Source: an uncultured bacterium (GTDB taxonomy: Bacteria; Fidelibacterota; UBA2242). Taken from it: a stretch of DNA of 59,320 nt. Made by a program: the position numbers and the translations under genes. Each line of letters starts with the position of its first letter. The first letter of the stretch is position 1. The notes below the pieces were generated by a model. The model did no database searches. It was not told the DNA's origin and worked only from the letters and a program-made list of their open reading frames with translations. Shown here in pieces: positions 13,950 to 33,950 of the stretch. The DNA lies in the NCBI GenBank assembly GCA_964485475.1, contig CAZAKB010000001.1:1-59320 (forward strand), read 5' to 3'.

Positions 13950-16529
13950 ATGAAAATGAAAAATGTTACAATGTTGGGCTTGTGCATGATCCTGCTGATC
14001 ATCGCATTTTTTCCAATTTCCACATCAGCACAGTGGGGAAAAGCACTCCATTATAAATGGTGGGAGCATGATCGGTTGTTGGTTTTGCAATCTGTGGATT
14101 ACTGGCCGGAACATGTGTACCAGGGAACCGTTGAATTGTTTTTCAAACTGGATTCTACACTTCGTTCAGATAATCATGGAAATACCTATACCTATCTTAT
14201 ATCGAAAAATCAGGGTGGAGCCGCCAAGGGTGATTTTGGTATCGCTTGGGAAACTGGTCAGGGTGATATTCATTCGTGGATTCAGGATGTTTCCAAAACC
14301 GCAGCTGTGCACAGTTATGAGATCCAGGTCTGGCAACCACGCTGGTATCATGTTGCCGTGACATGGGATGTTAACGATTCCATGCGTTTATGGATCGATG
14401 GTGTCCAAATGGCGCAAAGAATTCCTTCTGGTTTAATTAATGATACATATCCCCCATTAGATGTGGAGAGTGGTAATATGCCAATCGTTATCGGAAACCA
14501 AACAACCGAACAGATGTCGAGTACCTGGGATGGTTTTCGGGGAGTTATTGATGAATTCCGGATTTCCAATGTAGTTCGCTATACTGAAGATTTTGAAGTA
14601 CCCACAGAACCTTTTACGATGGACGCCGGGACAATGGCCCTTTGGCATTTCGACGAAGGCGAAGGATACATTGCTTATGACAATGCGTATGGATTATTTA
14701 ATGGAGCACTGGGCAATTCAATAAACGGATATGTCGATGCTCCACAATGGGTGGACATTGAGTATTCGGAAAAAATCATCATTAATGAAGTCTTACTGGA
14801 TGAAAGAAACAGTGATATTAACGGGGATGGGACCAGTGATGTAAAAGACGAGTTCGTCGAGTTGACGAATATATTTAATAAGGCTGTTGATTTGTCGGGA
14901 TGGCGGATAGGCGATGATGATGCAATCACTTTTACGTTTCCAGATGGTTATAAACTTGAACCAAATAAATTCGTCATCATCGTTGGTGGCGGTGATGTCA
15001 GCAGCCTACCGGGATATGACTCAGACCCATTAAAAACTGCAGTTTTTTCGGCTGGCGGCTCCATTGGTGACGGCTTGTCGGAAACCGGAGAGTATATCAT
15101 CCTACTATCGAGATTGGGCTATTCTGACTGTTACCTGGCTGTTGGCGACAAAGCCACTGCAGGAGCTCCGACATCAGCATTTCTCAGTGAAATTAACTGG
15201 GAATTTGTCAATACAACTGTTGCCGCTTCCGACCAGAATGCGTCTGTAACCCGAAACCAGGACGGGAATACGGAGATGGAAGATCCATTCGCGGTTCATA
15301 GCTCTACTGGAAGTGTTAACTATTCGCCAGGAACGACAATAGATGGTGCAGATTACTTGTCCTATTTAGTGACGATGAGTATGGACCCCGAAGGAGTTGG
15401 TACTTTGGAAATTGATACGGTAATGGCCCGCTATGAATATAACCAGGTGGTAACATTTAATGCAAAACCGATTTATGGTGAAGGACATGCCTTTGGGCAT
15501 TGGACGACCAATGATGTTGGTTTTACAAGTAAGTTAAATCCGCTGACCATGTCAATTAATAAACCCCAGCATGTGACTGCTCACTTTTTACCAAGGGTTC
15601 AAATTACACCGCGAGTAGTTATTAACGAGATCAACTTTGATGTTTACAAAGATGCCAATGGTGATGGTATCATCGAATCCAATCAGGATGAATTTGTCGA
15701 AATTATCAATATCTCTGCCGAAGATGTGGATTTGACCGGCTGGCGTTTGGGTGATGACGAAGAATTGTCTTTTACTTTTCCGGATGGATATGTAATCAAA
15801 TCCGGTCAGATCGTAACGGTTTTTTCCGGAGGAAATATCACGGGGGTTCCTGGCTTTAATGTGAATCCGACAAAATCCAAAGTCTTTGTCTCTGATGTTA
15901 TTGATCGCCTGGGAAACGGTCTGAATAATACAAATGAAGCAATATTACTGGTTTCTGCGGATGGGACCGAGGATATGTATGTCCAGAACCGTGACCGTAA
16001 TTTTAAAGGTGATCCGTTTATGAAGTCCGCTGAAGGTATTGACTTTGAAATTCGTATCGACGCGCAGGATTCCACCTGGAATAATAACTCGATTACCCTT
16101 TATCCTGATGGTGATTTGACTGAGGACGATCCCTATGTACAGCACAAAACCGTGGCGCTGAACGACTCCTGCTTTTCCCCTGGCCAGACGGTGGATTTCC
16201 AAAACTCCATAGTTGTAAATGCGATTGATGATTCGGAATCGGGTTTACCAAAATCCTTTGCACTGCATTCGAATTTTCCGAATCCCTTCAACCCGGAAAC
16301 TACGATTCGTTTTGATGTCCCTAGCCAATCAAAGGTTAGTTTGATTGTTTATGATATTTTAGGGAAAAAGGTTGCGGAACTGACGGATAATGAATTCAAT
16401 GCCGGATATTATCAGTTACGTTGGAATGGACGGAATAGTAACGGACAGATTGTCCCTGCGGGAGTCTATTTCTACCGGATTCAGACTGACAACTTTACTC
16501 AAACCAATAAAATGATTCTATTGAAATAA
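13950..16529 (+). CDS. Secreted T9SS cargo with a LamG (concanavalin-like) domain, two lamin-tail (LTD) domains and a type-A CTD
   Basis: LamG: WYHVAVTWD...LWIDGV...FRGVIDEFRISN. LTD1 at about 14778-15000: IINEVLLD...DEFVELTN...VDLSGWRIGDD. LTD2 at about 15618-15840: VINEINFD...DEFVEIINIS...VDLTGWRLGDD. CTD: NFPNPFNPETTIRFD...GVYFYRIQ...KMILLK. Confidence 0.75.
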   Translation: MKMKNVTMLGLCMILLIIAFFPISTSAQWGKALHYKWWEHDRLLVLQSVDYWPEHVYQGTVELFFKLDSTLRSDNHGNTYTYLISKNQGGAAKGDFGIAWETGQGDIHSWIQDVSKTAAVHSYEIQVWQPRWYHVAVTWDVNDSMRLWIDGVQMAQRIPSGLINDTYPPLDVESGNMPIVIGNQTTEQMSSTWDGFRGVIDEFRISNVVRYTEDFEVPTEPFTMDAGTMALWHFDEGEGYIAYDNAYGLFNGALGNSINGYVDAPQWVDIEYSEKIIINEVLLDERNSDINGDGTSDVKDEFVELTNIFNKAVDLSGWRIGDDDAITFTFPDGYKLEPNKFVIIVGGGDVSSLPGYDSDPLKTAVFSAGGSIGDGLSETGEYIILLSRLGYSDCYLAVGDKATAGAPTSAFLSEINWEFVNTTVAASDQNASVTRNQDGNTEMEDPFAVHSSTGSVNYSPGTTIDGADYLSYLVTMSMDPEGVGTLEIDTVMARYEYNQVVTFNAKPIYGEGHAFGHWTTNDVGFTSKLNPLTMSINKPQHVTAHFLPRVQITPRVVINEINFDVYKDANGDGIIESNQDEFVEIINISAEDVDLTGWRLGDDEELSFTFPDGYVIKSGQIVTVFSGGNITGVPGFNVNPTKSKVFVSDVIDRLGNGLNNTNEAILLVSADGTEDMYVQNRDRNFKGDPFMKSAEGIDFEIRIDAQDSTWNNNSITLYPDGDLTEDDPYVQHKTVALNDSCFSPGQTVDFQNSIVVNAIDDSESGLPKSFALHSNFPNPFNPETTIRFDVPSQSKVSLIVYDILGKKVAELTDNEFNAGYYQLRWNGRNSNGQIVPAGVYFYRIQTDNFTQTNKMILLK

Positions 16530-16559
16530 GTCAGTTTTTTAAAAATTAAGATTGTGATT

Positions 16560-16585
16560 ATGGGCGGCTTTAATAAGCCGCCCAT
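16560..16585. terminator. Strong 11-bp hairpin with no U-tract. It may be a terminator, or an RNA processing or stability element.
   Basis: ATGGGCGGCTT, TAAT loop, AAGCCGCCCAT. It lies 31 nt after the stop at 16529 and has no T-run on either strand. Confidence 0.4.
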
Positions 16586-16617
16586 GCTAATGTAATAATG
16601 GTGAAGGACAAGGTGAG

Positions 16618-17712
16618 TTGACTACTAAAGAACGAATGCTGGCTGTGTACAATAACCAGCAACCCTATTATATCCCGGTTTCCATATATTCCCGTTTCTT
16701 GAAAAGGGGAACACAGGAACGTGAAGCCCGCCGGCTTGGAATGGGAATAATTGATTATGTTCCGATTACATCTTTGATTGCGCCGCCCTGGCATTTGACG
16801 CAGGGATTCTTCTCGGAAGTAAAAAACGCTGAATTTAATATTCGTTATATCTGGCAAAATGGTGAAATCAGTGAAATCCGTACAATAAACACACCCGTTG
16901 GTTCTGTGTCTCAGCATCTTCGTAAAGATCCATCCTATGGCACTGATTGGGTTGATAAATTCTATATCGCCTGTCCTGAGGATTATAAGGTCATGCAATA
17001 TATTATTGAAAATACCATTAGTCGTCCTAATGAGAAGGCATTGTTGAAAAAACAAAATGAATTGGGGGATGATGGCGTCGTTCTTGGCCGTTTGGATCGA
17101 TGTCCCTTTCAAAAGATGCTGATTGAAATTGCAGGACCGGAGCAGTTCCTGGTAGATATTGCCACAGATTTTGCTCCAGCTATCGAATTATTGGAAGTGC
17201 TTGAGAAAAAAATGGATGAACAACTGGACATAGCGGTTAATTCCGCCGCCGAAATATTCTGGTCGCCGGAAAATGTAACCTGTGATATGACACCGCCATA
17301 CTACTATGAAAAATACTGCCTGCCACATTATAAAAAACGAGCGGAACGTTTAAATAAAACAAACAAACCGCTTTTTTTGCATTTTGATGGTCGTCTGAAA
17401 CCGCTGACAAGACTAATTGCTGATACCCCGATAAACGGAATTGAGTCATACTCTCTGCCTTTGGTGGGTAATGATCTGTCATTTTCTGAGGCCCAGGAAG
17501 CCTGGCCGGGTAAGGCTATCCTTCCGAATTTTCCGTCAACGCTTTGTTTGAAAGATGATTCTGAAATAGAAGCATTTCTTGAACAGATGTTGACCGAGAT
17601 TTTACCACAAACTTCAGTAATGCTTCAGATCAGCGAAGATCTTCCCGAAGAACACTATTATCGGGTATCAAGCCTGTTGGTCAGATTTATGCGGGAAAAG
17701 GGGAGGTATTAA
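16618..17712 (+). CDS. Uroporphyrinogen-decarboxylase (URO-D/MtaA-like) family protein, putative
   Basis: A TTG start gives an N terminus, TKERMLAVYNNQQPYYIPVS, that resembles the family-typical ..ER.LAAL.GE.PDRVPV. Length (364 aa) fits. No further motifs could be verified by eye. Confidence 0.4.
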   Translation: MTTKERMLAVYNNQQPYYIPVSIYSRFLKRGTQEREARRLGMGIIDYVPITSLIAPPWHLTQGFFSEVKNAEFNIRYIWQNGEISEIRTINTPVGSVSQHLRKDPSYGTDWVDKFYIACPEDYKVMQYIIENTISRPNEKALLKKQNELGDDGVVLGRLDRCPFQKMLIEIAGPEQFLVDIATDFAPAIELLEVLEKKMDEQLDIAVNSAAEIFWSPENVTCDMTPPYYYEKYCLPHYKKRAERLNKTNKPLFLHFDGRLKPLTRLIADTPINGIESYSLPLVGNDLSFSEAQEAWPGKAILPNFPSTLCLKDDSEIEAFLEQMLTEILPQTSVMLQISEDLPEEHYYRVSSLLVRFMREKGRY

Positions 17713-17714
17713 AA

Positions 17715-18617
17715 ATGAATAGAGTCAATTCAAGAATAATATCTTTCGCTTTTCTTGCTTTTCTATTGGCAGGCTGTTCTTCAGAAACCGATAATCCAGG
17801 AAAATTGTTCAAGCAGCTGAATGTAATTCCGATCGAAGCCCATCGTGGTGGTGGATTTCTCTTGCCTGAAAATACTTTAGAGACATTTGAATATACCTGG
17901 AACCAGAGATTGTTCCCAGAAGCGGATATTCGGACAAGCAAAGATGATGTAATCATTTGTATGCACGACGATACTCCGAGACGACTAGCACCTGATACAC
18001 CCGTTGATTTAATTGATAAAGATTTCAGTGAGATGAATCTAGCGACGGTTAAGACCCTTGATGTTGGCATCTTTCGTGGCAAACCTGGTGAACGGGTACC
18101 AACTCTGGAAGAGGTTTTTCAGGTTATGCAAGGTAAACCGGAACGGTTTCTAGCGCTTGACTATAAAGATATTGATCTGGATCGGCTGGCTGATATGGTA
18201 AGACAATATCATCTTGAAAAACAGGTTATTTTCACGTCACAGTATTATCATCTGATTCGGGAATGGAAAAAGCGGATTCCGGAATCCCTGACCATGATGT
18301 GGATGGGGACAAAACAAATTGATATCGAAAATAAAATAAGTATGCTAGAGGCTGCTGAATTTAAGGATATTTCAATCATTCAGGTTTACTTTGTGGCCAA
18401 TAAAGAGGCGCAAAATGGTAAAATACTTACGAATGCGAAGTTCTTTGCGGATAAAAGAAAACAAGTAGAAGCACATGATATTTTATTTTTGGTTTTTTCT
18501 TGGAAGGATGATCGGCCGGAAGTCTATCAAGAGCTAAAGGATTTGGGAATACAGGCATTTGCAACGGATTATCCTGAAATGGCTCGAAACGTATATCTGG
18601 GAAACGATAATCAATAG
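17715..18617 (+). CDS. Glycerophosphodiester phosphodiesterase (GDPD family) lipoprotein, second paralogue
   Basis: Lipobox LLAGC. Motifs are AHRGGGFLLPENTLETFE, PEADIRTSKDD and ICMHDDT. It starts 2 nt after the preceding stop. Confidence 0.85.
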   Translation: MNRVNSRIISFAFLAFLLAGCSSETDNPGKLFKQLNVIPIEAHRGGGFLLPENTLETFEYTWNQRLFPEADIRTSKDDVIICMHDDTPRRLAPDTPVDLIDKDFSEMNLATVKTLDVGIFRGKPGERVPTLEEVFQVMQGKPERFLALDYKDIDLDRLADMVRQYHLEKQVIFTSQYYHLIREWKKRIPESLTMMWMGTKQIDIENKISMLEAAEFKDISIIQVYFVANKEAQNGKILTNAKFFADKRKQVEAHDILFLVFSWKDDRPEVYQELKDLGIQAFATDYPEMARNVYLGNDNQ

Positions 18618-18681
18618 ATATTCATTAATTATTAAAATGGTATTAATTTTCAGCAAATCGCTAATTTAGAAAATAGAATAA

Positions 18682-20676
18682 ATGAGTAATATGAAATTAT
18701 TTAGTAATGCAGCAAAATGGCTTCCTTTTTTGACAGTAGTATTGACAATAAACGCAGTCGGTAACGTTCTATTCCGCTACAATTCGGATATTGAAGCCGA
18801 TTCACCGGTTCAGTCACCGGCTACACGAAATCAAATTACGATTCAGGAATATCTGCCGGAAAATGAAATTACTGCCAGGGGACCTTCCGGTTGGGGATTT
18901 GAAACGATGAATGTAACCCTTTTTGCCCGGGATTCATCCTGTATTTATTCACAGAATGAGATCAATACCACATTTTTCAACGATCATGCGATTTCCGGGG
19001 AAATTTGGATTAAACCATATTTATTGAATGGTAACCTGATGACCCTAGTTGACACTTATGGTGACAAGATAATATCTCTCTCGATTATTGACGGTAAAAT
19101 ACACTTTAAACGGAACCTTCAGAATTATATATTTGAGATTCAATCCCCGGATTTTTGTTCCCAGAATGAGTGGAATTATATTCACTGGATCAGTGGTACG
19201 GAAGAGGATACAATTTTCCAGAAACTGTATATTAATCGACAATTGGCTGTTGAGGAACGTCGGGCAATTATTCATTATCCACTTGGGTATGAAGTAATGA
19301 AGGGTTACCTGAAAATTGGTTTCGATGGTTCTTTGGCAAGCAGCGCTTATCGTGGTGAGATTTATGCGGTCGAATTGAAAAACATTGATTCTGGAAACGC
19401 CTATAATAATGCTTACTCCACATCCGATGGCAGCGCTTATTTCGGAATACCGGCATTCCGGTATTATGCCTCCGGTTCCTATATCAGACAAAAAACAATA
19501 AAGTCCTGCAAAGTCCCGGTGTTAAATACAATCTTTACTCCCTATATCAATGACGGCTATATTCCTCAGGGATTAACAAATTCCTATGAAGATGATCGAT
19601 TTAATGGTGACAGTGCTATGCTGTATTTAACGTTATATCATCGAACAATTACTGGAGAAATAGGGCAAAAACGGTCGCTTCTAGTGGAATTGGATCCCAA
19701 TAATGGCTATCAGGTTCGGCGATGCTTTCGCCTGAGCGCCGCTCTTGAAACCGCCCATGTTCCGGCAATGGCTTTTCGTGGTGGGAACATTATTATTACC
19801 AATGGCGGGGTCAGTTATAAACATGAAATCCCGGAATATAGTGGAGCCGGAACAGAGAAATATCAGACGCTGAATTATATCCGCTCAGTTAACATGTATT
19901 CCTCAAGTGCGACCTGTTATTCTGACTCAATCTGGTGCTGTACTTTGTTTGCTGATCAAGTCGGAGAGACTGCTTATCTCGCCGGATACCCGATTGATAG
20001 CACCGGTAATGTCAATCACACTGCGCCACCGAGGTACTACATGATGCCGATGTATGTTCAGGGTGCAGCGTGGACCCGATTCCAGGGTGAAGATTATCTT
20101 TTTGTTTCTGCCAGCTCCGGGGATAATGATTCAAAACTATATCGTTACTCACGAAAAAACCTATCCCGTTGGTTTTTAGCTGATCCCGACACGATATTTT
20201 ATTTACCTGCTGGAACGGAAGATGTGACATTTAACGAAAAAGGAAATTTACTGAACGTCTCGGAATCATCCGCGCTGTACTATTCCAGTCGGACTTCCAA
20301 TCCTTGGTCACAATTTTATCCATTTATTTTTGAAATCCAAAGAGATGTCCTGTTTGCAGATCTAATTAATGGAAGTACCGGCATTCGCTTGGAAAATCAT
20401 AGCACAATTCCCGATGATTTTGAGTTGTCTGCCTATCCAAATCCCTTCAACAACCAATTGAATATTCGGTACCAGATTAAGCCAGTATCAACTTCTCAAA
20501 TAAACATTTTCGACCTTAGCGGACGTTTGGTTGATTCATTTTCAAATATGAATACTACTAATTCCTATACTAATTATATCTGGAACGCTGCCAGCGTCTC
20601 TTCGGGTATTTATTTTGTTCAATTGATTGTAGATAGGATTCCAGCCCAATCAGAGAAAGTAGTTTTGCTTAAATGA
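18682..20676 (+). CDS. Secreted T9SS cargo with an N-terminal LamG-like domain, a central region of unknown function and a type-A CTD
   Basis: It has a signal peptide. A LamG-like pattern is present (ISGEIWIKP...WNYIHWISG...LYINRQL). CTD: AYPNPFNNQLNIRYQ...GIYFVQL...KVVLLK. Confidence 0.6.
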   Translation: MSNMKLFSNAAKWLPFLTVVLTINAVGNVLFRYNSDIEADSPVQSPATRNQITIQEYLPENEITARGPSGWGFETMNVTLFARDSSCIYSQNEINTTFFNDHAISGEIWIKPYLLNGNLMTLVDTYGDKIISLSIIDGKIHFKRNLQNYIFEIQSPDFCSQNEWNYIHWISGTEEDTIFQKLYINRQLAVEERRAIIHYPLGYEVMKGYLKIGFDGSLASSAYRGEIYAVELKNIDSGNAYNNAYSTSDGSAYFGIPAFRYYASGSYIRQKTIKSCKVPVLNTIFTPYINDGYIPQGLTNSYEDDRFNGDSAMLYLTLYHRTITGEIGQKRSLLVELDPNNGYQVRRCFRLSAALETAHVPAMAFRGGNIIITNGGVSYKHEIPEYSGAGTEKYQTLNYIRSVNMYSSSATCYSDSIWCCTLFADQVGETAYLAGYPIDSTGNVNHTAPPRYYMMPMYVQGAAWTRFQGEDYLFVSASSGDNDSKLYRYSRKNLSRWFLADPDTIFYLPAGTEDVTFNEKGNLLNVSESSALYYSSRTSNPWSQFYPFIFEIQRDVLFADLINGSTGIRLENHSTIPDDFELSAYPNPFNNQLNIRYQIKPVSTSQINIFDLSGRLVDSFSNMNTTNSYTNYIWNAASVSSGIYFVQLIVDRIPAQSEKVVLLK

Positions 20677-22244: not shown

Positions 22245-22283
22245 TTATTGTGCGGGTGTAATCGAAATAATAGAGGAGTTATT

Positions 22284-23078: not shown

Positions 23079-23118
23079 ATCCCTCAATCTTATCGATAAA
23101 GATATAAGGAAACGGAAG

Positions 23119-24546: not shown

Positions 24547-24564
24547 CCAATTACTGATATATTC

Positions 24565-25485: not shown

Positions 25486-25488
25486 TTT

Positions 25489-26316
25489 ATGAATGCAAAA
25501 ATCAGAAGAACGTCTGTTTCTGTTGTCCGCAATACCTTACTGACACTTTATGCTCTGTTTGCATTGTTTCCGATTTTCTGGATGGTCCTGATTACGTTTA
25601 AAAGCGACTCGGAGATGTATACAACGACATTTCTATTCCATCCCACCCTGCACAATTACAAAGAAGTGCTGCTGCGGACCGATTATTTCCAGGCTTTTCT
25701 GGATAATATTATCGTCAGTAGTGGGGCGGTATTGGTATCTGTGTTAGTTGGCGTTCCGGCGGCCTATGCGCTGGCGCGCTACAAATTCAAGGGCAAGGAA
25801 GACCTGGCGTTTACGATCTTATCTTTCAAGTTTGCCCCGGAAATCCTGGTGATTCTGCCGCTGTTTATGGTCTACCAGGCGCTGGGCATTTATGATACCT
25901 ATTTCGGTTTGATCTGGGTGTATCAACTGATCACGATGCCGCTGCTGATCTGGGTAGTGCGAGGCTATTTTGAAGACATTAATGTTGAAATTGAACAAGC
26001 CGCTCAACTGGATGGTTATCCGTGGCATAGTGTTTTTCTGAAGATCCTGTTACCCTTGATTAAACCGGGACTTGTCGCGGCAGGACTGCTGGCGTTTATT
26101 TTTGCCTGGAACAGCTTCACATTTCCATTATTGCTGAGTGGTTTTAGAATTGAAACGGTAACGGTGGCCTCGCTGAAGTATATCGCTTCGGATACGGTTC
26201 ATTACGGACAGATGGCCGTGGCTGCAACGGTGGCGGCACTCCCGGAAGTGATTTTGGCCTTATTAATCCAAAAGCATCTCGTCAGAGGATTGAGTTTTGG
26301 CGCGGTAAAAGGATAG
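25489..26316 (+). CDS. ABC transporter permease (MalG/UgpE-like)
   Basis: EAA loop is EQAAQLDGYPWHSVFLKILLPLIKPG. It starts 3 nt after the upstream stop. Confidence 0.85.
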   Translation: MNAKIRRTSVSVVRNTLLTLYALFALFPIFWMVLITFKSDSEMYTTTFLFHPTLHNYKEVLLRTDYFQAFLDNIIVSSGAVLVSVLVGVPAAYALARYKFKGKEDLAFTILSFKFAPEILVILPLFMVYQALGIYDTYFGLIWVYQLITMPLLIWVVRGYFEDINVEIEQAAQLDGYPWHSVFLKILLPLIKPGLVAAGLLAFIFAWNSFTFPLLLSGFRIETVTVASLKYIASDTVHYGQMAVAATVAALPEVILALLIQKHLVRGLSFGAVKG

Positions 26317-26322
26317 GATACG

Positions 26323-27462
26323 ATGGCCTGCATAGAACTGACCCATATCAGCAAACAATTCAGAAAATATTTTGCTCTGGATGATGTCAGTTTTCAGGTG
26401 AATGACAAGGAATTCTTTGTTCTTTTCGGGCCGACTGGCGCAGGAAAAACAACCGTCCTGAAAACAATTGCTGGGATTGAGTCCCCCGATGAAGGGAATG
26501 TTAAAATCGATAATGAAATTGTCAATCTTATCGAACCAGCATATCGTAATGTGTCTATGGTGTTTGAGAATTACGCCCTTTATCCGCATTTTTCGGTTTA
26601 TGATAATATCGCCTCTCCGATGCGCAGCCCTTTACATAAAACCGATGAAGAGACAATTCACAAGGAAGTTCACCGCACTGCAGCGATGTTGAAAATTGAA
26701 CATCTATTGGACCGCTTACCGTCGCAGATTAGTAATGGACAAAAACAACGGGTAGCAATTGGCCGGTGCCTGGTTCGTAAACCAAATGTATTTTTAATGG
26801 ATGAACCACTGGCGCATCTGGATGCCAAACTGAGACATTTTATGCGAGCTGAATTAAAGGAGATGCAGGCAAATTTTGATACTACCACCATTTATGTGAC
26901 GCATGATTATTTGGAAGCCCTGAGCCTTGGCAACAGGATTGCAGTGATTAATCGAGGCCAGATTGAGCAAATCGGCACAGCGAATGAGGTGTATTACACT
27001 CCGGTAAATCAGTTTACTGCCAGACTATTTGGTGAACCGGAAATTAATATTTTTGGGATAGAATTGATCGAATGCGAAAATGGTCCAAAGATCAAAATGT
27101 TGAACAATGAACATTTTTTCGATCTTGAACCGGATGTCGTAAAAGTGCTTTCAGAACAAAACGTTCATGATTTGAACCTGGGAATCCGGGGAACCTGCAT
27201 TTCCTACTCATTTGCCAAAGAAGAAGATAACTTTTTTGATGGAACAGTTTACAGCTTGGAACCAATCGGTAATAAATCGATTCTGATCGTGGATATAGAT
27301 GGTGAACGCATTCGTATCATCGCGCCAAATGATTTACATGCGGAACTAGACTCCCCAATATTTTTAAAATTTGATTTGAAAAAAGCACTGTTTTTTGATC
27401 GAACAAGTGAGGAATTTATTATCCGGCACAATCAGGCACATTATATCGGAGGTTTGATATAA
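26323..27462 (+). CDS. ABC transporter ATP-binding protein, MalK/UgpC-like, with non-consensus Q-loop and signature motifs
   Basis: Walker A is GPTGAGKTT. The Q-loop reads VFENYALYPH, with Glu where Gln is expected. The signature is ISNGQ instead of LSGGQ. Walker B is VFLMDEPLAHLD and the H-loop YVTHD. A C-terminal regulatory (TOBE-like) domain is present. Confidence 0.9.
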   Translation: MACIELTHISKQFRKYFALDDVSFQVNDKEFFVLFGPTGAGKTTVLKTIAGIESPDEGNVKIDNEIVNLIEPAYRNVSMVFENYALYPHFSVYDNIASPMRSPLHKTDEETIHKEVHRTAAMLKIEHLLDRLPSQISNGQKQRVAIGRCLVRKPNVFLMDEPLAHLDAKLRHFMRAELKEMQANFDTTTIYVTHDYLEALSLGNRIAVINRGQIEQIGTANEVYYTPVNQFTARLFGEPEINIFGIELIECENGPKIKMLNNEHFFDLEPDVVKVLSEQNVHDLNLGIRGTCISYSFAKEEDNFFDGTVYSLEPIGNKSILIVDIDGERIRIIAPNDLHAELDSPIFLKFDLKKALFFDRTSEEFIIRHNQAHYIGGLI

Positions 27463-28577
27463 TGGCCAAACTTCTTCTGAAAAAACTTTACAAGCGTTAT
27501 TCCAATAAACATAGCAAATTACAGAATGATTTTGCGGTGAATGATTTTTCGCTGGAGTGTAACGATGGCGAGTTCGTCGGTATTTTGGGACCATCGGGTT
27601 GTGGAAAAACGACTACACTGAGGATGATTGCGGGTCTGGAAGATATTACCGCCGGGGATATTTTTATTGGTAATACTAGAATCAATGATTTGCATCCGAA
27701 AGATCGCCAAATCGGGCTAGCTTTTGAAGATTATGCGTTATATCCGCCACTGAATGTCTATGACAATATCGCTTTTAATTTAAGAGCGAAAAAGGTGAAG
27801 GAGGCCGATATTCTGTCTGAGATTAAGCGTATTGCACCATTACTGAAAGTTGACGATCTGCTGGATAGCCGGCCGGTATCGTTGAGCGGTGGACAGAAAC
27901 AACGGGTAAATATTGCCAGGGCAGTCATACGTAAACCAAAATTACTTTTACTTGATGAACCACTGTCTCATCTCGACGGTAAAATGCGTCAGGTTCTGCG
28001 TACTGAGATCAAGCGGCTGCACAAGGAGATCAACTGTACGACGATTATTGTCACCCATGACCAGCTGGAAGCCATGTCACTGGCAGATCGGATTGCCATT
28101 ATGAAAGATGGTAAGCTGCAACAATACGGGACACCACTGGAGATATACAATTATCCGGTTAATGAATTTGTGGCCGGATTTATTGGTGAACCACCGATGA
28201 ATATAATGACAGTGACAGTTTCGAAGACAGATGGTGTATTCTTTTTCAATTTTTCGGGAACTGATGTCAGCATTCCTGTCCCTACACAGTACTATCCGCA
28301 TGTGCAGGAAGGTGGAACGGTACGGTTTGGGATTCGGCCATCGGACGTATTGATCGGACAGCAAAGTAGCATGGGATCAATGGTCCAGGTAGCGGTTTTC
28401 GAGAATTTGGGAGAAGAGTGTCGAATCAGTATCAGGGTAGGAGATGATTACCTTACTATGACGACTTCAGAAGAAATCCGCTACCGACAAGGTGATGTTA
28501 TTAAACTGGTAGTTAAGTCAGACCGAATCCATCTTTTTAACCCGGTGAGTGGTGATCGATTAGGAGAGAAGATTTGA
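27462..28577 (+). CDS. ABC transporter ATP-binding protein, MalK/UgpC-like, second distinct subunit
   Basis: Walker A is GPSGCGKTT. The Q-loop reads AFEDYALYPP, again Glu for Gln. The signature is the canonical LSGGQKQRV. Walker B is LLLLDEPLSHLD and the H-loop IVTHD. Its start overlaps the upstream stop (TAATG). Confidence 0.9.
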   Translation: MAKLLLKKLYKRYSNKHSKLQNDFAVNDFSLECNDGEFVGILGPSGCGKTTTLRMIAGLEDITAGDIFIGNTRINDLHPKDRQIGLAFEDYALYPPLNVYDNIAFNLRAKKVKEADILSEIKRIAPLLKVDDLLDSRPVSLSGGQKQRVNIARAVIRKPKLLLLDEPLSHLDGKMRQVLRTEIKRLHKEINCTTIIVTHDQLEAMSLADRIAIMKDGKLQQYGTPLEIYNYPVNEFVAGFIGEPPMNIMTVTVSKTDGVFFFNFSGTDVSIPVPTQYYPHVQEGGTVRFGIRPSDVLIGQQSSMGSMVQVAVFENLGEECRISIRVGDDYLTMTTSEEIRYRQGDVIKLVVKSDRIHLFNPVSGDRLGEKI

Positions 28578-30250
28578 TGAGTTCAGAAAAATACAGCATT
28601 GGTGTGGATTTCGGGACCCTATCGGCCCGGGCGGTAATTGTAAATGTCAAGACCGGTGAAGAATTAGCGACGGCTGACAGTAGATACCGGCACGGTGTTC
28701 TGGATAAATTTCTTCCCGATGGAAAAACCATTGTTCCACCAAATTGGGCGCTGCAATATACTGGTGATTACCTGAATGCTATTTCTGAGGTAATTCCGTT
28801 GGTCATAAATAAAGCCGGAATCAGTGCCGATGATGTCATTGGGCTTGGTACTGATTTTACAGGAAGCACGATTGCACCGATTGACGCCGATGGCATTCCT
28901 TTATGTATGAAAGAGGAATTTAAAAACAATCCCCATGCCTATGTTAAATTATGGAAACATCATGGTGCTCAACAAGAGGCACTGGGTATTACCCGAATTG
29001 CAAAAGAGCGCAAGGAATCCTTTTTACAGCGCTACGGTGGCATGATTTCATCGGAAATGATGCTGCCAAAAATCTGGCAGACTCTCAATGAGGCACCGGA
29101 AATCTATCAGGCAGCTGATCGATTTATCGAAATGTGCGATTGGATCACGTTGTACCTGACTGGCAAAGAGCGACGCAGTGCTTGCGCTGCCGGGTACCGG
29201 GCATTATGGGATAAACTGGAGGGTTATCCTTCCGAAAAATTTTTCAGGGCATTAGATCTGCGGTTGGAAAATGTTGTAGATGAGAAACTCGGTCGTGATG
29301 TTTATGCGGTTGGATCAAAAGCCGGAGAATTAACAGCGGCTGCAGCCCGGATTACCGGCCTGAATACAGGGACAGCGATTGCAGTAGGAATTATTGATGC
29401 CCATGCAGGATTGCCGGGAGTCGGAATTACCGAACCCGGAAGACTGGTAATGATTATGGGTACATCAGGATGTGATTTGATTCTTGATGTGGAAAGGAAA
29501 GACGTACCTGGCATTTTCGGTGTCGTTACGGATGGAATCATTCCCGGTTATTTTTCCTATGAAGCGGGACAAACCGGGCTTGGCGATATTTATCAATGGG
29601 CAATTGACAACTGTGTATCTGAGACATATTACAAGGAGGCTGAACGTCGGAATCTCAGTATATTTCAACTTATGAATGATAAAGCCGCCGTATTGGCTCC
29701 CGGTGAATCGGGATTACTCGCACTGGATTGGTGGAATGGTAATCGATCGGTGCTGATGGATTTTGATCTCAGTGGATTGATGGTGGGATACACATTATCC
29801 ACAAAGCCAGAGGAAATATACAGGGCATTATTGGAAGCAACAGCCTTTGGCAAACGGAAAATTATTGAGAATTACCTGGAGTATGGAATTCAAATTAATG
29901 AAATCATTGCTGCCGGTGGAATTCCCGATAGGAACCCATTGTTGATGCAGATTTTTGCGGATGTATTGGAAAAGGAAATTAAAATTACGAATTCTCAGCA
30001 TTCGACTGCCCTTGGCGCAGCGATCCTGGGGGCCGTAGCTGCCGGAGAGGGGTGCGGCGGTTATAGTACAATCCGAGAAGCAGCAAAATCAATGGCAAAA
30101 AATAAGACTAAATCAATCCGGCCAATTCCAGAAAATTCAGTTGTTTATAATAAACTTTATAACGAATACCTGGTTTTACATGATTATTTTAGGCGTGGTG
30201 GGAATGATGTGATGAAACGGATAAGGAAAATCCGGAATGACGTTAAATAG
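28577..30250 (+). CDS. araB: Ribulokinase (FGGY carbohydrate kinase, AraB-type)
   Basis: The N terminus YSIGVDFGTLSARAVIVNVKTGEELA and the C-terminal GGIPDRNPLLMQIFADVLEKEIKI...ALGAAILGAVAAG match AraB of B. subtilis and E. coli. Length is about 557 aa. The ATG overlaps the upstream TGA (TGATG). Confidence 0.8.
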   Translation: MSSEKYSIGVDFGTLSARAVIVNVKTGEELATADSRYRHGVLDKFLPDGKTIVPPNWALQYTGDYLNAISEVIPLVINKAGISADDVIGLGTDFTGSTIAPIDADGIPLCMKEEFKNNPHAYVKLWKHHGAQQEALGITRIAKERKESFLQRYGGMISSEMMLPKIWQTLNEAPEIYQAADRFIEMCDWITLYLTGKERRSACAAGYRALWDKLEGYPSEKFFRALDLRLENVVDEKLGRDVYAVGSKAGELTAAAARITGLNTGTAIAVGIIDAHAGLPGVGITEPGRLVMIMGTSGCDLILDVERKDVPGIFGVVTDGIIPGYFSYEAGQTGLGDIYQWAIDNCVSETYYKEAERRNLSIFQLMNDKAAVLAPGESGLLALDWWNGNRSVLMDFDLSGLMVGYTLSTKPEEIYRALLEATAFGKRKIIENYLEYGIQINEIIAAGGIPDRNPLLMQIFADVLEKEIKITNSQHSTALGAAILGAVAAGEGCGGYSTIREAAKSMAKNKTKSIRPIPENSVVYNKLYNEYLVLHDYFRRGGNDVMKRIRKIRNDVK

Positions 30251-30261
30251 GAAGTATACTC

Positions 30262-31344
30262 ATGGATAATACACTTTCAAGACGTGATTTTTTAAAAATG
30301 ACTGGCACCACGATACTTGGTGTTACACTCTCTGGGAATGTATTGACGAAAGCATTTGCCAGGCCCAGCAGCGTCACTTTTAATCCAGTTCGTTTTGCTG
30401 TCATCGCTGATTTACATCTTGATATCGATGGTGAAAATGGCATGAAAATGAGTGCAGAGAGTGTAGAATGCCTACGTAGAACAGTAATTGACCTGAATGC
30501 TGAAGATGATCTGGCTTTTGTATTAGTACTTGGCGATTTACTTCTCGATGGTGAACTGGAAAACGCCAGAGTTGTGAAGAAATATCTGGATAAATTGAAT
30601 ATGCCATCGTACGTCATTTGTGGTAATCACGATTTTGTACCGCCGGATCCAAAGAAACATCGGGCAGGATTTACCTACCTGACGATTGATGAATTTGTAG
30701 CATTTTTCAGAGGACACGGATATAATAAATCTGGTAGTCGATATTATGCAAAACCAATTGTTCCGGGTTTACGATTGATCGGGCTTGATGCATGCCTACC
30801 TGACAATCCGAATCACTGGGGCGGCATTCTTCCAGATGAGCAGCTACAGTGGCTGGACAAGCAACTGAGTGAATATACCGATGAATTTAACCTGATTTTC
30901 ATGCATCATAATTTTATCCGATGGTCTGAGGATGAACAACCTGGCCGTCCAATGCAGAATTTCTGTATTGATAACGACGTGGAAGTAAAAGACCTACTAT
31001 CAAAACACGCTAACGCCGCACCGGTGGTAATTTCAGGTCACCGGCATATCGGTCTGCGTTCGAAAGAGGAAAATGGAGTGAACTATTTCGTTGTTCCCTC
31101 ACTTAATTCCCATCCCATGCGCTATTCGGTATTTAGTCTGACTCCTCAATCTATTTCATGGAAGACACCGATGGTGACCGCTTTGGAAACCGTTCATTTG
31201 GAAGCCCGGAATAATCTGCTGAAAGCGGACTTTTGGCGCGGCGAACAGTTTAAAGCCCGAGATATGGTCAATGACATGGCGGTCTTAAATTTTTACGAGA
31301 AGCCGGATAGGATTTTTGGTAATATAAAGTTAATTAAAAAATAA
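30262..31344 (+). CDS. Tat-exported calcineurin-like metallophosphoesterase
   Basis: The twin-arginine signal is SRRDFLKMTGTTILG. MPE motifs are IADLHLD, LGDLLLDGE, CGNHD, MHHN and SGHRH. Confidence 0.75.
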   Translation: MDNTLSRRDFLKMTGTTILGVTLSGNVLTKAFARPSSVTFNPVRFAVIADLHLDIDGENGMKMSAESVECLRRTVIDLNAEDDLAFVLVLGDLLLDGELENARVVKKYLDKLNMPSYVICGNHDFVPPDPKKHRAGFTYLTIDEFVAFFRGHGYNKSGSRYYAKPIVPGLRLIGLDACLPDNPNHWGGILPDEQLQWLDKQLSEYTDEFNLIFMHHNFIRWSEDEQPGRPMQNFCIDNDVEVKDLLSKHANAAPVVISGHRHIGLRSKEENGVNYFVVPSLNSHPMRYSVFSLTPQSISWKTPMVTALETVHLEARNNLLKADFWRGEQFKARDMVNDMAVLNFYEKPDRIFGNIKLIKK

Positions 31345-31402
31345 TGTATAATCTTTGATTATCTAGGATTTGTATTTTGAAGATTGTAAAACAGGAAAAA
31401 AG

Positions 31403-33892
31403 ATGAAAAAAACGATTGGTTCTCTGGTGCTGATATTTGAATTAGCCACACTTGTATGTCTCACACTTTCAACCCTTAACGCCAGACCGGCGACGAACGC
31501 CCGTTCTCCGTTTATGCTGGTTTTAATACCGGATACTCAATATTACTCATTGAGAGACCCCGGTACCTATAATGCACAGGCCGAATGGATTGTAGATTAT
31601 CGGCAAATATACAAAATTAAATTTGCGATTCATCTGGGTGATATTACTCATAACAATACTGAAGTGGAATGGCAGGCAGCAAGCGCGGCCCATGATATAT
31701 TGGACAACGCCGGAGTACCATACAGCGTTATTCCTGGCAATCATGATAATGTCGGTCAGGGTAAGACTCGTGATACGAAACGTTATAACCAGTATTTTGG
31801 TCTCGAACGGTTTGATGAACGGGCCTGGTATGGCGGTCATTTTCGGAACACGAATGATAATAACTATTGGTTTTTTGAAGTCGATGATCTGAAGTTCATG
31901 ATTGTCGGTCTGGAGTTTGCCCCAAGCAAGGAGGCTTTGTGTTGGGCGGATTCTCTGTTATTGCACTATCAGGACCGCCGGGTAATAGTAGCAACCCATT
32001 GCTATCAGGCCCATGGCGGTGATCATCAATGTAATTGCGGTACAGCTTATGATATTGTAGGCAGTGGTGGCAATACAACCTGGAATGAATTTGTTCGCCG
32101 GCATAGTAATATATTTTTGGTTGTGTCCGGTCATATTGGTGATTCGGAATTTAATATTCGTACCGGAAACTCTGGAAATACTGTCTATGAAATATTAACG
32201 GACTATCAATTTGAGCAACGTAATAACCAAAGTCATGGCAATGGCTGGCTCCGTACATTGAAATTTTTTCCTGATGAAAATCGAATTGACGTCAAAATAC
32301 TCACTGTACTTGATGAGGTTTATGAGTTCAATCAGGATGATTATCCGAAGTATCCGGGTGATCCGGTCCACACTTACTCAATCGATTATGATATGAGTGG
32401 TCCGGTTGAGGGGAAATATCTTCGGCTTAGTAACAGATTCAACGATATGACGGTACAGGCGGGTGATCGGGGCAATCAGTTTTTGCCTTCAATATCGATG
32501 GCTCCGAATGGTGATTTTGCCGTGGCATGGATGGATAGCAGTGAAAACAGCGCCGGTACCTATCAGGTTCTTACCCGTGGATTCGAACTTTCCGGCCGTC
32601 CCAAATTTCCCGGCATCACGGTGAATTCGCAAATTGGGAGTTCAAATCAAAATCCTGATATTGCAATTGGTTCAGAGGGACAGTTTGTTGTGGTTTGGGA
32701 AAACCATAACGGATATGGCGATTTTGATGTAAAAATGGTTGGTTATAACGCCGATGGAACTGAATATTTTGGTGAGATAACTGTCAATTCTGTATCAACC
32801 GGCAACCAAACTAGTCCTGCGGTTGCAATTGCGGAAGACGGTACGTTTATTGTGGTGTGGGAAGATGATGCAGATAACAACGGAAAATCTGAAATATTAA
32901 TGGCTGGTTTTCATCCTGACGGGTCGAAGCGGGTTAGTGACGCCCAGATAAACACACAATCCGGTGGAAACCAAAACAATCCGGATATCGTGATGAAATC
33001 TGATGGTGACGGCGTAATTGTCTGGGAAAGTGATAATGAAGCCGATGACTTGTTTCAGATAAATGTGGTCGGTATTGACATAAATGGTGCTGAACGATTT
33101 TCTGAAATGACTGTTAATGCAGTTACAAGTGGACAGCACTCCAATCCCTCAGTCGATATGAACGCTGATGGTTCGTTTGTTGTCACCTGGGAAGATGATA
33201 GTGATGGCAATGAGTTCTACGAGATTTATGTTGCCGGTTTTAATAGTAACGGGATTAAACAGTTTGGAAATACAACAGTCAATGCAATTCCCGGTGGCCA
33301 ACAGCTACGATCATCTATTGCAATGTCTGAAATCGGTGACTTTATTGTTACGTTTCAAGATGATAACGATGGCAATGGTTATTATCAAATATTTGCATCT
33401 GAATTTAATGCCGACGGATTACGTAAAACAGAGAGTGATTTTACGGTTAATGAAAATGGTGGTGGGCAGCAGTTTAATCCGGTTATTGCGATGAAGGACA
33501 TCAATAGTTATGTAATTCTCTGGGAAGATGATATGAATAATAATAATTACTATGAAGTTTTGGCCAGAGGATATGACAATGGTGAAACCTACGTGACTGC
33601 CATTTCACAGGCCACAGATGAAATGCCACGGAATTTCGAATTATATCAGAATTATCCTAATCCGTTTAACCCGGAAACAATCATCCGGTACGAAATTCCA
33701 AATGCAACAAATGTGACATTAACGATTTATAATACGGTAGGGCAAATCGTCGAACATCTGGTGAATCAGAAACAGGAGTCGGGGTCTTATTCTGTGAAAT
33801 GGAATGCATCTCATTATAGTACCGGCCTTTATTTCTACCGGATTGTGGCTGGTGATTTTCAACAGGTAAAACAGATGCTGTTGATCAAATAG
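31403..33892 (+). CDS. T9SS-secreted metallophosphoesterase fused to a seven-repeat (propeller-like) module and a type-A CTD
   Basis: ATG at 31403 follows AGGAAA. MPE motifs are LIPDTQYY, HLGDITHNN, PGNHDN and SGHIGD. Seven repeats of about 58-62 aa follow. CTD: [15 protein letters not shown]...GLYFYRI...QMLLIK. Confidence 0.7.
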   Translation: MKKTIGSLVLIFELATLVCLTLSTLNARPATNARSPFMLVLIPDTQYYSLRDPGTYNAQAEWIVDYRQIYKIKFAIHLGDITHNNTEVEWQAASAAHDILDNAGVPYSVIPGNHDNVGQGKTRDTKRYNQYFGLERFDERAWYGGHFRNTNDNNYWFFEVDDLKFMIVGLEFAPSKEALCWADSLLLHYQDRRVIVATHCYQAHGGDHQCNCGTAYDIVGSGGNTTWNEFVRRHSNIFLVVSGHIGDSEFNIRTGNSGNTVYEILTDYQFEQRNNQSHGNGWLRTLKFFPDENRIDVKILTVLDEVYEFNQDDYPKYPGDPVHTYSIDYDMSGPVEGKYLRLSNRFNDMTVQAGDRGNQFLPSISMAPNGDFAVAWMDSSENSAGTYQVLTRGFELSGRPKFPGITVNSQIGSSNQNPDIAIGSEGQFVVVWENHNGYGDFDVKMVGYNADGTEYFGEITVNSVSTGNQTSPAVAIAEDGTFIVVWEDDADNNGKSEILMAGFHPDGSKRVSDAQINTQSGGNQNNPDIVMKSDGDGVIVWESDNEADDLFQINVVGIDINGAERFSEMTVNAVTSGQHSNPSVDMNADGSFVVTWEDDSDGNEFYEIYVAGFNSNGIKQFGNTTVNAIPGGQQLRSSIAMSEIGDFIVTFQDDNDGNGYYQIFASEFNADGLRKTESDFTVNENGGGQQFNPVIAMKDINSYVILWEDDMNNNNYYEVLARGYDNGETYVTAISQATDEMPRNFELYQNYPNPFNPETIIRYEIPNATNVTLTIYNTVGQIVEHLVNQKQESGSYSVKWNASHYSTGLYFYRIVAGDFQQVKQMLLIK
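32430..33590 (+). repeat. Seven tandem protein repeats of about 165 nt each, with consensus [NQ]Q..P.[IV]A....G.F.V.WED....
   Basis: The repeat cores are as follows:
- GNQFLPSISMAPNGDFAVAWMD
- SNQNPDIAIGSEGQFVVVWEN
- GNQTSPAVAIAEDGTFIVVWEDD
- GNQNNPDIVMKSDGDGVIVWESD
- GQHSNPSVDMNADGSFVVTWEDD
- GQQLRSSIAMSEIGDFIVTFQDD
- GQQFNPVIAMKDINSYVILWEDD. Confidence 0.75.
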
Positions 33893-33906
33893 CACCATAT
33901 GGTAGG

Positions 33907-33950
33907 GGGGCAAGTAAGGGCCGGTTTTACCGAATACTGCCCCTTTTATT
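33907..33950 (+). terminator. Rho-independent terminator ending locus A
   Basis: GGGGCA(A)GTA pairs with TACTGCCCC (9 bp, one bulge). TTTTATTTT follows. It lies 15 nt after the stop at 33892. Confidence 0.7.

Follow-up and report, generated by a model that had tools for sequence, protein, structure and literature searches.

A gene run headed by a TonB-dependent receptor and rich in exported phosphoesterases: a candidate locus for harvesting extracellular phosphodiesters in Marinimicrobia

What would a bacterium harvest with a locus that is laid out like a polysaccharide utilization locus (PUL) and carries phosphoesterases in place of glycanases? The question is raised by contig CAZAKB010000001.1 from an uncultured member of the Fidelibacterota, a phylum name that we equate with Candidatus Neomarinimicrobiota, Marinimicrobia and SAR406. 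We analyzed a window of 59 320 nt of this contig (the whole stretch of DNA considered; all coordinates are positions in it and proteins are named by gene start), with families assigned by Pfam and NCBIfam scans of the open reading frames (ORFs) of the window. The ORF listing has one unbroken + strand run at 6929–33892, whose first gene encodes a TonB-dependent receptor (TBDR). It is followed by genes for a 1033-aa protein, a PorV-like barrel, a protein with one LamG and two LTD domains, a URO-D-like protein, the second of two glycerophosphodiester phosphodiesterases (GDPD2), a 664-aa protein secreted by the type IX secretion system (T9SS) and a peptidyl-prolyl isomerase (PPIase); the second part of the run encodes an enzyme of the phospholipase C (PLC)/P1-nuclease clan, a substrate-binding protein (SBP), two permeases and two ATPases of an ABC importer, the ribulokinase AraB, a Tat-exported metallophosphoesterase (Tat-MPE) and a T9SS-secreted one (T9SS-MPE).

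The initial annotation of this DNA had also described an uninterrupted + strand run downstream of the receptor, and its inventory was essentially right: the LamG + 2xLTD T9SS protein, a second GDPD lipoprotein, the Tat-exported metallophosphoesterase, the T9SS metallophosphoesterase with a seven-repeat module, a CUT1 ABC importer and a ribulokinase were all recovered by the family scans. The inventory left out the URO-D-like gene (16618–17712) and the PPIase lipoprotein (20673–22244), and the order that it listed differs from the actual one, in which the PLC/P1-like gene is followed by the ABC importer and AraB, and only then by the two metallophosphoesterases. The same scans found no glycoside hydrolase (GH), polysaccharide lyase (PL) or carbohydrate esterase (CE) family in any protein of 6929–33892, in agreement with the absence of recognizable glycoside hydrolases claimed earlier; this holds for the products of 13950, 18682 and 9710 too, in which a GH or PL domain had been named as the finding that would overturn the annotation.

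We tentatively read the locus, with somewhat less than even confidence, as a substrate-inducible PUL-like system for harvesting extracellular glycerol- or polyol-phosphate phosphodiesters, the likeliest substrates being teichoic-acid-type polymers and/or phospholipid-derived glycerophosphodiesters from microbial envelope debris. The steps of the proposed mechanism were derived from families, export signals and conserved synteny. The LamG–LTD binder, the 18682 protein and a metallophosphoesterase with a propeller-like repeat module would be displayed at the cell surface via T9SS, possibly through the PorV-like barrel, and these three proteins would capture and cut a polyanionic substrate. Once taken in by the TBDR, the fragments would be trimmed in the periplasm by the GDPD lipoproteins, by a GpdQ-like diesterase exported via Tat and by the Sec-exported PLC/P1-clan enzyme. 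A GlpT/UhpC-like antiporter could then bring glycerol phosphate, or some other alditol phosphate, into the cytoplasm, and either a glycerol-1-phosphate dehydrogenase (G1PDH)-like enzyme would oxidize glycerol phosphate to dihydroxyacetone phosphate or a HAD enzyme would dephosphorylate it. A branch peculiar to this lineage might lead pentitol or pentulose into the pentose-phosphate pathway by means of an added ABC importer, whose SBP is of polyol type, together with AraB and RpiB. The predicted cytoplasmic set consists of the dehydrogenase, the HAD enzyme, AraB, RpiB and the URO-D-like protein; a SorC-type regulator and a repeated 18-mer would co-regulate the two operons. The conserved route from GDPD through the GlpT/UhpC-like antiporter to the G1PDH-like dehydrogenase suggests that glycerol or alditol phosphate is the imported product.

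The gene grouping is not due to chance, since the arrangement recurs in diverged Marinimicrobia contigs. We compared the window with related loci L001, L004, L005, L006 and L008–L012, L010 being a TARA Oceans contig. The sister loci L005 and L008 contain a core of the 1033-aa protein (unk1033), the PorV-like barrel, the LamG/LTD protein, the 664-aa T9SS protein (unk664), the PPIase, the PLC/P1-like enzyme, Tat-MPE and T9SS-MPE. Conservation of a core was also seen in L001 and L006. More distant versions (L004, L009 and L011) keep the LTD proteins, unk664, GDPD and a metallophosphoesterase, add a SASA esterase and swap enzyme types, e.g. for a purple-acid-phosphatase (PAP)-type metallophosphoesterase. 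Thus L004 has PPIase, SASA, unk664, GDPD, LTDx4, PLC/P1-like and metallophosphoesterase genes, and L009 carries on one strand genes for the PorV-like barrel, LamG/LTD, GDPD, SASA, unk664, PAP-type metallophosphoesterase, LTD/Big_5, GDPD, Fe-ADH_2 dehydrogenase, HAD enzyme and a transporter of the major facilitator superfamily (MFS). A TBDR orthologue is accompanied in L010 by LamG/LTD, a DeoR/GlpR-type regulator, MFS, HAD, GDPD and unk664, and a TBDR in L012 by a 1032-aa counterpart (unk1032), PorV-like and unk664 genes. Partners conserved across the phylum are therefore the TBDR, LTD proteins, the ~660-aa T9SS protein (unk664), GDPD, a metallophosphoesterase and the MFS transporter, and it is because of these partners that polyol-phosphate phosphodiesters are favored over nucleic acids.

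The genes upstream of the receptor, from 373 onward, belong to the locus as well, given that they are contiguous with it in a distant relative and that an identical 18-mer precedes both operons. In L009 the orthologues of window 373–4958 follow the locus immediately and without a change of strand (identities: GDPD1 73%, Fe-ADH_2 62%, HAD 72%, MFS 85%). In the window this segment, on the + strand, starts with the GDPD1 lipoprotein (373–1263; PF03009 at 72 bits with a cut-off of 23.6; lipobox FMGC). Next is a predicted cytoplasmic G1PDH-like dehydrogenase of the Fe-ADH_2 family (1297–2685; PF13685, 1e-32), for which NAD(P)-dependent G1PDH of the EgsA/AraM type is the closest named family even at 183 bits to NF002022, under the cut-off of 413; its best PDB match is also a G1PDH (9h4x, 1.4e-36). 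It is followed by a HAD-IIA phosphatase of AraL/NagD type (2691–3530; Hydrolase_6 and Hydrolase_like; TIGR01460 at 134.6, cut-off 100) and by an MFS transporter of the organophosphate:inorganic phosphate (Pi) antiporter type, UhpC/GlpT/PgtP-like (3573–4958). The latter is a family relative, with similarity to the antiporter models over the full length (E 1e-104 to 1e-112) and with all scores below cut-off (UhpC 376 versus 564, GlpT 363 versus 633, TIGR00881 350 versus 408). Ribose-5-phosphate isomerase B, RpiB, is encoded at 5035–5487 (+; PF02502, 1e-49; NF004051 at 171, cut-off 135).

The 18-mer GAATTAATATTTATGAAT, a candidate operator or promoter element, occurs on the + strand at 275–292, 81 bp upstream of GDPD1, and in a second exact copy, also +, at 6774–6791, 138 bp upstream of the TBDR start; a copy with three mismatches (4994–5011) precedes rpiB. 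At ≤3 mismatches there are three matches in 59 kb with 0.5 expected. The exact copies lie within a homologous (duplicated) block of ~65 bp (240–303 and 6738–6802), and related copies are present in orthologous intergenic DNA of L009 (12712, 16287 and 16347), L011 (6867, 10406 and 10466) and L004 (6379). From this shared element we infer that the two operons are probably co-regulated, plausibly by the SorC/DeoR (Bacillus)-type, sugar-phosphate-sensing regulator encoded divergently from the TBDR (5592–6515, − strand; PF04198, 2e-53) acting through the 18-mer on both.

Regulation bears on whether carbon or phosphorus is the prize. In Flavobacterium johnsoniae, PUSI-IV (PusCD) are Pi-starvation-induced clusters in which a TonB-dependent transporter (TBDT) is linked to phosphodiesterases (PDEs) and phosphomonoesterases (PMEs) (Lidbury et al., ISME J 2021, PMC8115612). 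A locus of this kind would release Pi from mixed dissolved organic phosphodiesters, with carbon incidental. It is the co-localization of TBDT with PDE and PME genes that defines the PUS layout (PMC8115612), and the window has such a set: TBDR 6929, two GDPDs, two metallophosphoesterases, the PLC/P1-like enzyme and the organophosphate-antiporter-like MFS 3573. As in PUS, PDEs, PMEs (pf00149, CpdA-like) and inner-membrane organophosphate transporters stand with a TBDT in place of carbohydrate-active enzymes (CAZymes); both systems belong to the FCB superphylum, and in Flavobacterium LTD-bearing secreted enzymes are in the same regulon. Moreover, Tat-exported or secreted phosphoesterases are typical members of Pho regulons, and one related locus (L010) comes from open-ocean SAR406, where phosphorus can be limiting. 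Still, PhoB/PhoR, pst and phoU genes are absent from the window and the related loci, and the regulators are of a catabolic, sugar-phosphate-sensing type, SorC here and DeoR/GlpR-type in L010, with no evident Pho regulon. The cytoplasmic carbon-catabolic enzymes (G1PDH-like, AraB, RpiB) would be co-regulated with the run, and an organophosphate:Pi antiporter, if it works as GlpT and UhpT are generally known to do, would export Pi, which is counter-productive for scavenging. We therefore consider phosphorus scavenging a quite improbable function. Further differences from PUS are the absence of SusD/PusD, the places of which are taken by the ~1030-aa protein, the PorV-like barrel and the PPIase, the T9SS C-terminal domains (CTDs) on the cargo, the cytoplasmic carbon-catabolic genes attached to the locus, and the presence of the PLC/P1-clan enzyme and of a beta domain without a known family.

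Which bonds would the periplasmic enzymes cut? GDPD2, a + strand lipoprotein gene at 17715–18617 (PF03009 at 59.6 bits, cut-off 23.6; lipobox LLAGC), and GDPD1 are 50% identical paralogues that both match the family over their full length, and the best PDB matches of GDPD1 are GDPDs, including B. subtilis GlpQ (5t91). The Tat-exported enzyme (30262–31344, +; Metallophos) is a class-III-PDE-like, presumably periplasmic metallophosphoesterase resembling GpdQ, CpdA and SpdA; its Tat signal, SRRDFLK, scores 18.8 to TIGR01409 (above the cut-off of 16.7), the best PDB match is the glycerophosphodiesterase GpdQ (2zo9/3d03, 2.3e-6) and the best NCBIfam match is the 2',3'-cNMP phosphodiesterase SpdA (59.7 bits).

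The third enzyme, a predicted Sec-exported trinuclear-zinc phosphodiesterase of the PLC/P1-nuclease clan (22248/22284–23078, +), had been called an S1/P1-type nuclease, a label that the present results do not bear out. The only Pfam family matched was Zn_dep_PLPC (PF00882; 21.6–21.8 bits, below the gathering score of 26.8), and no match to S1-P1_nuclease (PF02265) was seen at gathering score. The protein has homologues in nine clusters among 5.8 billion proteins, all in similar loci, and a genome scan assigns the family to Candidatus Neomarinimicrobiota/Fidelibacterota; eight of these nine family members match Zn_dep_PLPC (best 2e-7) and six weakly match S1-P1_nuclease (best 7e-4). With an AlphaFold2 (AF2) model (pLDDT 82.6) as query, Foldseek placed Zn-PLCs at ranks 1–17 (probability ~1, with weak E-values of 0.015–0.3 and TM scores of 0.35–0.53) and S1/P1 nucleases at ranks 18–20 (probability 0.38–0.63), while PDB, searched by sequence and by profile, gave no match to the PLC or the S1/P1 family. 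The predicted mature N-terminus is the Trp that follows the signal peptide. In the family W25, H30, D54/D65, H98, H140, D144, H150, H173 and E/D177 are invariant or conserved, a set that equally defines Zn-PLC; the spacing matches that of the nuclease P1 ligands, which we take to be W1, H6, ..., H116, D120, H126, H149 and D/E153. Judged by this conservation of predicted metal ligands, 22284 is surely a phosphodiesterase and, by Pfam and by its modelled fold, appears to be a rare, deep-branching member of the PLC/P1 clan slightly closer to phospholipase C.

These assignments matter for the reading of the locus as a forager on extracellular DNA (eDNA) or RNA, in which the LTD would bind DNA, the PLC/P1 enzyme would be a nuclease, the metallophosphoesterases would act as nucleotidases or 2',3'-cyclic PDEs, the TBDR would import oligonucleotides and pentose would be handled via RpiB. 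LTD does occur together with extracellular nucleases, namely EndA1/2 of Flavobacterium (PMC8115612) and those of the Izemoplasma DNA loci (PMC8289736), and Marinisomatota metagenome-assembled genomes turned up in DNA-amended enrichments (PMC8630151). The nine conserved metal-ligand positions of 22284 with their P1-like spacing, the weak PF02265 matches in six of nine family members and the SpdA match of Tat-MPE also speak for it, as does the regulator 5592, which is most like Bacillus DeoR (164 bits, below cut-off), whose effector is deoxyribose-5-P. However, neither the window nor the related loci contain a nucleoside transporter, nucleoside phosphorylase or hydrolase, deoxyribose-phosphate aldolase, phosphopentomutase or ribokinase; a 5'-nucleotidase C-domain and a canonical secreted nuclease are absent from them as well. 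The zinc enzyme is nearer to phospholipase C by Pfam and Foldseek, and the conserved GDPD and organophosphate antiporter have no nucleic-acid role, all of which makes foraging on nucleic acids unlikely. Where the initial annotation had left the substrate as 'nucleic acid or teichoic acid', the second part agrees with the GDPD, antiporter-like MFS, G1PDH-like and HAD genes; the first part suffers from an insecure nuclease label and from the absence of nucleoside and deoxyribose genes.

At the cell surface, the products of 13950, 18682 and 31370 have an N-terminal signal peptide and a sorting domain above the PF18962/TIGR04183 cut-offs, as expected for type-A T9SS cargo. The first (13950–16529, +; Laminin_G_3, two LTD, Por_Secre_tail) has the domain order LamG, LTD, InlB-B-like, LTD; it is kept in L001, L005, L008, L009 and L010 and is a putative surface binder of the polyanionic substrate. 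For the LTD, binding of eDNA or of analogous anionic polymers at the surface has been predicted (PMC11488536), and the same work proposes that (lipo)teichoic acid, lipid head groups or eDNA are cleaved by secreted enzymes in which a calcineurin-like domain is joined to LTD, LamG or a propeller. An enzyme with such a build is encoded at 31370–33892 (+; Metallophos): its catalytic domain is followed by seven repeats of ~55 aa (residues ~351–735), which probably form a 7-bladed propeller, and by the CTD. By its catalytic domain the protein is one of a widespread family of metallophosphoesterases of ~320 aa that has no name: all entries retrieved as homologues were unnamed 'metallophosphoesterase' proteins. 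Nothing useful was found in PDB.

The third surface protein, unk664 (18682–20676, +), is a candidate surface enzyme of 664 aa and consists of a LamG-like lectin domain, an all-beta domain of ~300 aa and the CTD. This architecture is seen in a moderately confident AF2 model (pLDDT 67), whose Foldseek matches reflect the LamG domain alone. The middle domain (residues ~278–578, window 19516–20415) has 676 relatives (cluster representatives) at E ≤1e-3 in a library clustered at 50%; they are often preceded by LamG, sometimes come with LTD and also occur as stand-alone proteins of ~330–390 aa. None of 10 remote relatives sampled had Pfam coverage of this domain.

A domain of this sort leaves room for a glycan or phosphoglycan locus, in which 18682 and/or 9710 would be undescribed GHs or lyases, the phosphoesterases would only take phosphodiester-linked decorations (glycerol-P, ribitol-P or sugar-1-P bridges) off a polysaccharide of capsule or wall, and the sugar set free would be used by way of the ABC importer and AraB. 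The top Foldseek match of 18682 by E-value is the sialidase NanB, with the same domain order and a TM score of only 0.17; in relatives, a SASA carbohydrate esterase with a GH2_N-like domain adjoins unk664; the SBP family is CUT1, which serves sugars, with a match to the arabino-oligosaccharide binder AraN; and AraB is a kinase of the L-arabinose pathway. Weighing on the other side, no GH, PL or CE was found in the proteins of the locus, nor was one detected at E ≤5 in 14 homologues of 18682, whose Pfam scans brought up no known family, while sequence and profile searches of PDB with 18682 gave nothing credible. In addition, 9710 is probably substrate-agnostic and the ABC+AraB block is accessory (both points are taken up below). 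We thus hold the phosphoglycan alternative to be quite unlikely. As for the SASA (SGNH) esterases themselves, they are ~670 aa long, carry a GH2_N-like sugar-binding domain and adjoin unk664 at 1395–3413 of L004, 6878–8878 of L009 and 1028–3034 of L011; they could serve to strip the substrate of ester-linked groups (O-acetyl or D-alanyl?).

Harvesting of polyol-phosphate phosphodiesters draws further plausibility from GlpQ and PhoD being known teichoicases (cited in PMC11488536), and from the phylum's only cultured member living on cell-wall fragments (muropeptides) of other bacteria (PMC11652737); by analogy, the reading would fit a phylum whose sole isolate uses muropeptides. Several observations weigh against it. 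The GDPD, metallophosphoesterase and PLC/P1 families each cover many substrates, and the 1297 dehydrogenase and the 3573 MFS score under curated equivalog cut-offs. GDPD was not seen in the closest sister loci, L005 and L008, within the stretch fetched. Gram-positive teichoic acids are expectedly scarce in the pelagic ocean, the home of L010. AraB is an L-ribulokinase, yet the window is without AraA, AraD and a pentitol dehydrogenase. The beta domain of 18682 could be a glycosidase. GDPD relatives also act on sugar phosphodiesters, as in agrocinopine and xanthosan-type chemistry (PMC12807533).

A bolder version, which we find doubtful, would be that the teichoic-acid or anionic-lipid fraction of foreign envelopes is eaten by a dedicated machine with a catabolic G1PDH homologue, two new enzyme families and a SusD-less PorV-tethering cassette. 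If true, the G1PDH homologue would be used catabolically on sn-glycerol-1-phosphate, which to our knowledge is supplied only by lipoteichoic acid, phosphatidylglycerol head groups and archaeal lipids; such a use, which is possible, bears on the stereochemistry of bacterial glycerol phosphate. The two undescribed enzyme families would be the ~300-aa beta domain of 18682 and the deep-branching PLC/P1-clan phosphodiesterase. We found no specific literature on a teichoic-acid PUL or on a catabolic G1PDH.

How the cargo is served can be seen by comparison with the neighboring locus B (35721–56507), which encodes a CBM9 T9SS protein, a GlcNAc-2-epimerase-family enzyme that is cellobiose/mannobiose epimerase-like, a GH130 phosphorylase and a GH26 T9SS mannanase, and by these families is a mannan-type utilization locus; a LacI regulator gene lies near it at 34658. 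The two loci share a cassette of TBDR, PorV-like barrel, a family-less paralogue of ~1000–1200 aa and a PPIase (6929–13915 and 38997–48099). Its members here, all on the + strand, are the TBDR (6929–9664; CarboxypepD_reg, Plug and barrel), the secreted 1033-aa protein (9710–12811), which has no Pfam or NCBIfam match and is 36% identical to the 1205-aa product of 43068–46685, the PorV/UPF0164-like outer-membrane beta-barrel (12842–13915; PF19572 at 31.1, cut-off 27; PF03687 at 36.1) with a paralogue at 41995–43056, and the SurA/PrsA-like PPIase lipoprotein (20673–22244; Rotamase_3, 3e-6; lipobox LTASC) with a counterpart at 46687–48099. Since the cassette is common to the mannan and the phosphoesterase loci, it is best regarded as a generic SusD-less uptake module, and 'PUL-like, but for phosphodiesters' is a fair description, in line with the main idea of the initial annotation: the same cassette carries mannanases in locus B and phosphoesterases here. 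By the same token 9710 is probably substrate-agnostic, and the idea that it is a hidden substrate-specific GH was rejected given that its paralogue serves the mannan locus. PorV paralogues specific to each locus might hold T9SS cargo close to the TBDR.

The marks of a Bacteroidota PUL, a SusC/SusD pair and co-localized CAZymes, are lacking: TBDR 6929 scores 88 bits to SusC (TIGR04056, cut-off 368), the family scans gave no SusD match among its neighbors, and Pfam and NCBIfam found no CAZyme within 6929–33892. The orthologues of this TBDR in L010 and L012 (49–53% identity) show linkage to LamG/LTD and unk664 genes. Two features of the 9710 product were noted in passing: a long acidic Asp/Gly-rich stretch at residues ~300–420 resembles calcium-binding repeats, and the C-terminus (VVPDPYV...GIYVFHV) resembles a CTD or a FlgD-Ig-type sorting domain, with no model matched.

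Against the earlier opinion that such a system would be unusual, there are three precedents (PMC8115612, PMC12807533 and PMC8289736), the first being the PUS clusters considered above. In the second, a TBDT and a phosphodiesterase for a sugar phosphodiester have been demonstrated in Xanthomonas (XanT-XanP, PMC12807533); like that system and the acc genes for agrocinopine in Agrobacterium (cited there), the locus couples a TBDT or ABC importer to dedicated phosphodiesterases. XanP, though, belongs to the 2H phosphoesterases and acts on a defined cyclic di-galactose-phosphate from the bacterium's own effector, and the Xanthomonas system is without T9SS surface proteins or a multi-enzyme cascade. 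In the DNA-degradation loci of Ca. Izemoplasmatales (Wasmund et al. 2021, PMC8289736), which are bacteria of marine sediment, secreted phosphodiester-cleaving enzymes likewise stand with an LTD protein and ABC importers, and the loci are interpreted as serving nutrient harvest. Their hosts are monoderms, however, and the loci encode recognizable nucleases and nucleotidases, transporters of nucleoside type and an ABC transporter for phosphate, none of which is present here.

Partial parallels are found in other systems. The pairing of GDPD with a metallophosphoesterase recalls GlpQ/PhoD of B. subtilis, and calcineurin-like domains combined with LTD, LamG and beta-propellers, with the same proposed substrates, recall the ShfP radiation (PMC11488536; Myers et al. 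2016 cited there). In B. subtilis the enzymes act on the wall of the cell that makes them, which they recycle in Pi starvation or sporulation, and have no link to an outer-membrane importer, and PhoD (PF09423) is absent here; unlike in B. subtilis and ShfP, the modules are distributed among several T9SS proteins, the host is a diderm, and foreign material is the proposed target. In E. coli, a periplasmic GDPD feeds a GlpT-type antiporter, and UgpBAECQ is a CUT1 importer with an ATPase of the type seen here (UgpC-like); there are no outer-membrane TBDR and secreted binders or enzymes in that GlpQ-GlpT/Ugp system, while the present locus has a G1PDH-like enzyme rather than GlpD/GlpABC and an SBP that resembles polyol/sugar binders, not UgpB.

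What is distinct from the precedents is the phylum, the SusD-less PorV cassette, the T9SS display, the regulator type together with carbon catabolism, and several unannotated families. SAR406/Marinimicrobia are abundant and almost uncultured, and much of the organic phosphorus, dissolved or in sediments, is in phosphodiesters (nucleic acids, phospholipids, teichoic acids). A cassette re-equipped with phosphoesterases in place of glycanases would show how this phylum takes part in necromass turnover, and the PUL/PUS paradigm would extend beyond Bacteroidota to a SusD-less, T9SS-dependent format. The genomic context would also offer a functional lead for the beta domain of 18682, the PLC/P1-clan enzyme, the ~1000-aa cassette protein and the ~320-aa metallophosphoesterase family.

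Two blocks in the run are lineage-specific insertions, because both are missing from the sister loci L005 and L008. The first, which L001 and L006 have in the same position as the window, comprises, all on the + strand, a CUT1 substrate-binding lipoprotein (23119–24546, with the true start at about 23119; SBP_bac_1, 1.5e-31), two ABC permeases (24565–26316; BPD_transp_1 twice), two MalK/UgpC-like ATPases (26323–28577; Pfam/NCBIfam) and the AraB-type ribulokinase (28574–30250; NF003154 at 712, cut-off 428; TIGR01234 at 689, cut-off 583). The SBP matches in PDB a sorbitol-binding SBP best (4rya, 1.4e-20), followed by TMBP and AraN; SBP, AraB and RpiB would fit an added pentitol/pentulose branch. 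Being accessory, the block was rejected as core evidence, which weakens the earlier use of ribulokinase and ABC importer as an argument about substrate. An L-arabinose operon, suggested by the parallel of AraB/AraL/AraM/AraNPQ-like genes to B. subtilis araABDLMNPQ, was rejected as well, for AraA, AraD and arabinofuranosidases are absent. The two ATPase genes are ~40% identical; CUT1 importers usually have one, so two different genes imply a heterodimeric ATPase.

The second insertion consists of GDPD2 and the URO-D-like gene (16618–17712, +), the latter also absent from L001. Its product, predicted to be cytoplasmic, belongs to the URO-D/MtaA superfamily (PF01208, 2.5e-8), and the PDB search gave no match to it. 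A perfect hairpin with an 11-bp stem, ATGGGCGGCTT/AAGCCGCCCAT, lies at about 16560–16586, at the upstream junction of this insertion.

Promoter and terminator scans of the window gave output no better than that for shuffled sequence. The end of the run is nevertheless marked by a likely operon terminator, read directly from the sequence on the + strand at 33905–33952: a hairpin GGGGCA...TGCCCC followed by the T-run TTTTATTTT; the long loop of the hairpin is the reason why the terminator scan missed it. In the sister loci the core is followed downstream (L005 14035–19028; L008 14378–19162) by genes for a ~515-aa Asp/Glu-racemase-like protein, a DUF2807 protein and a CotH-kinase protein with LTD (and a T9SS CTD).

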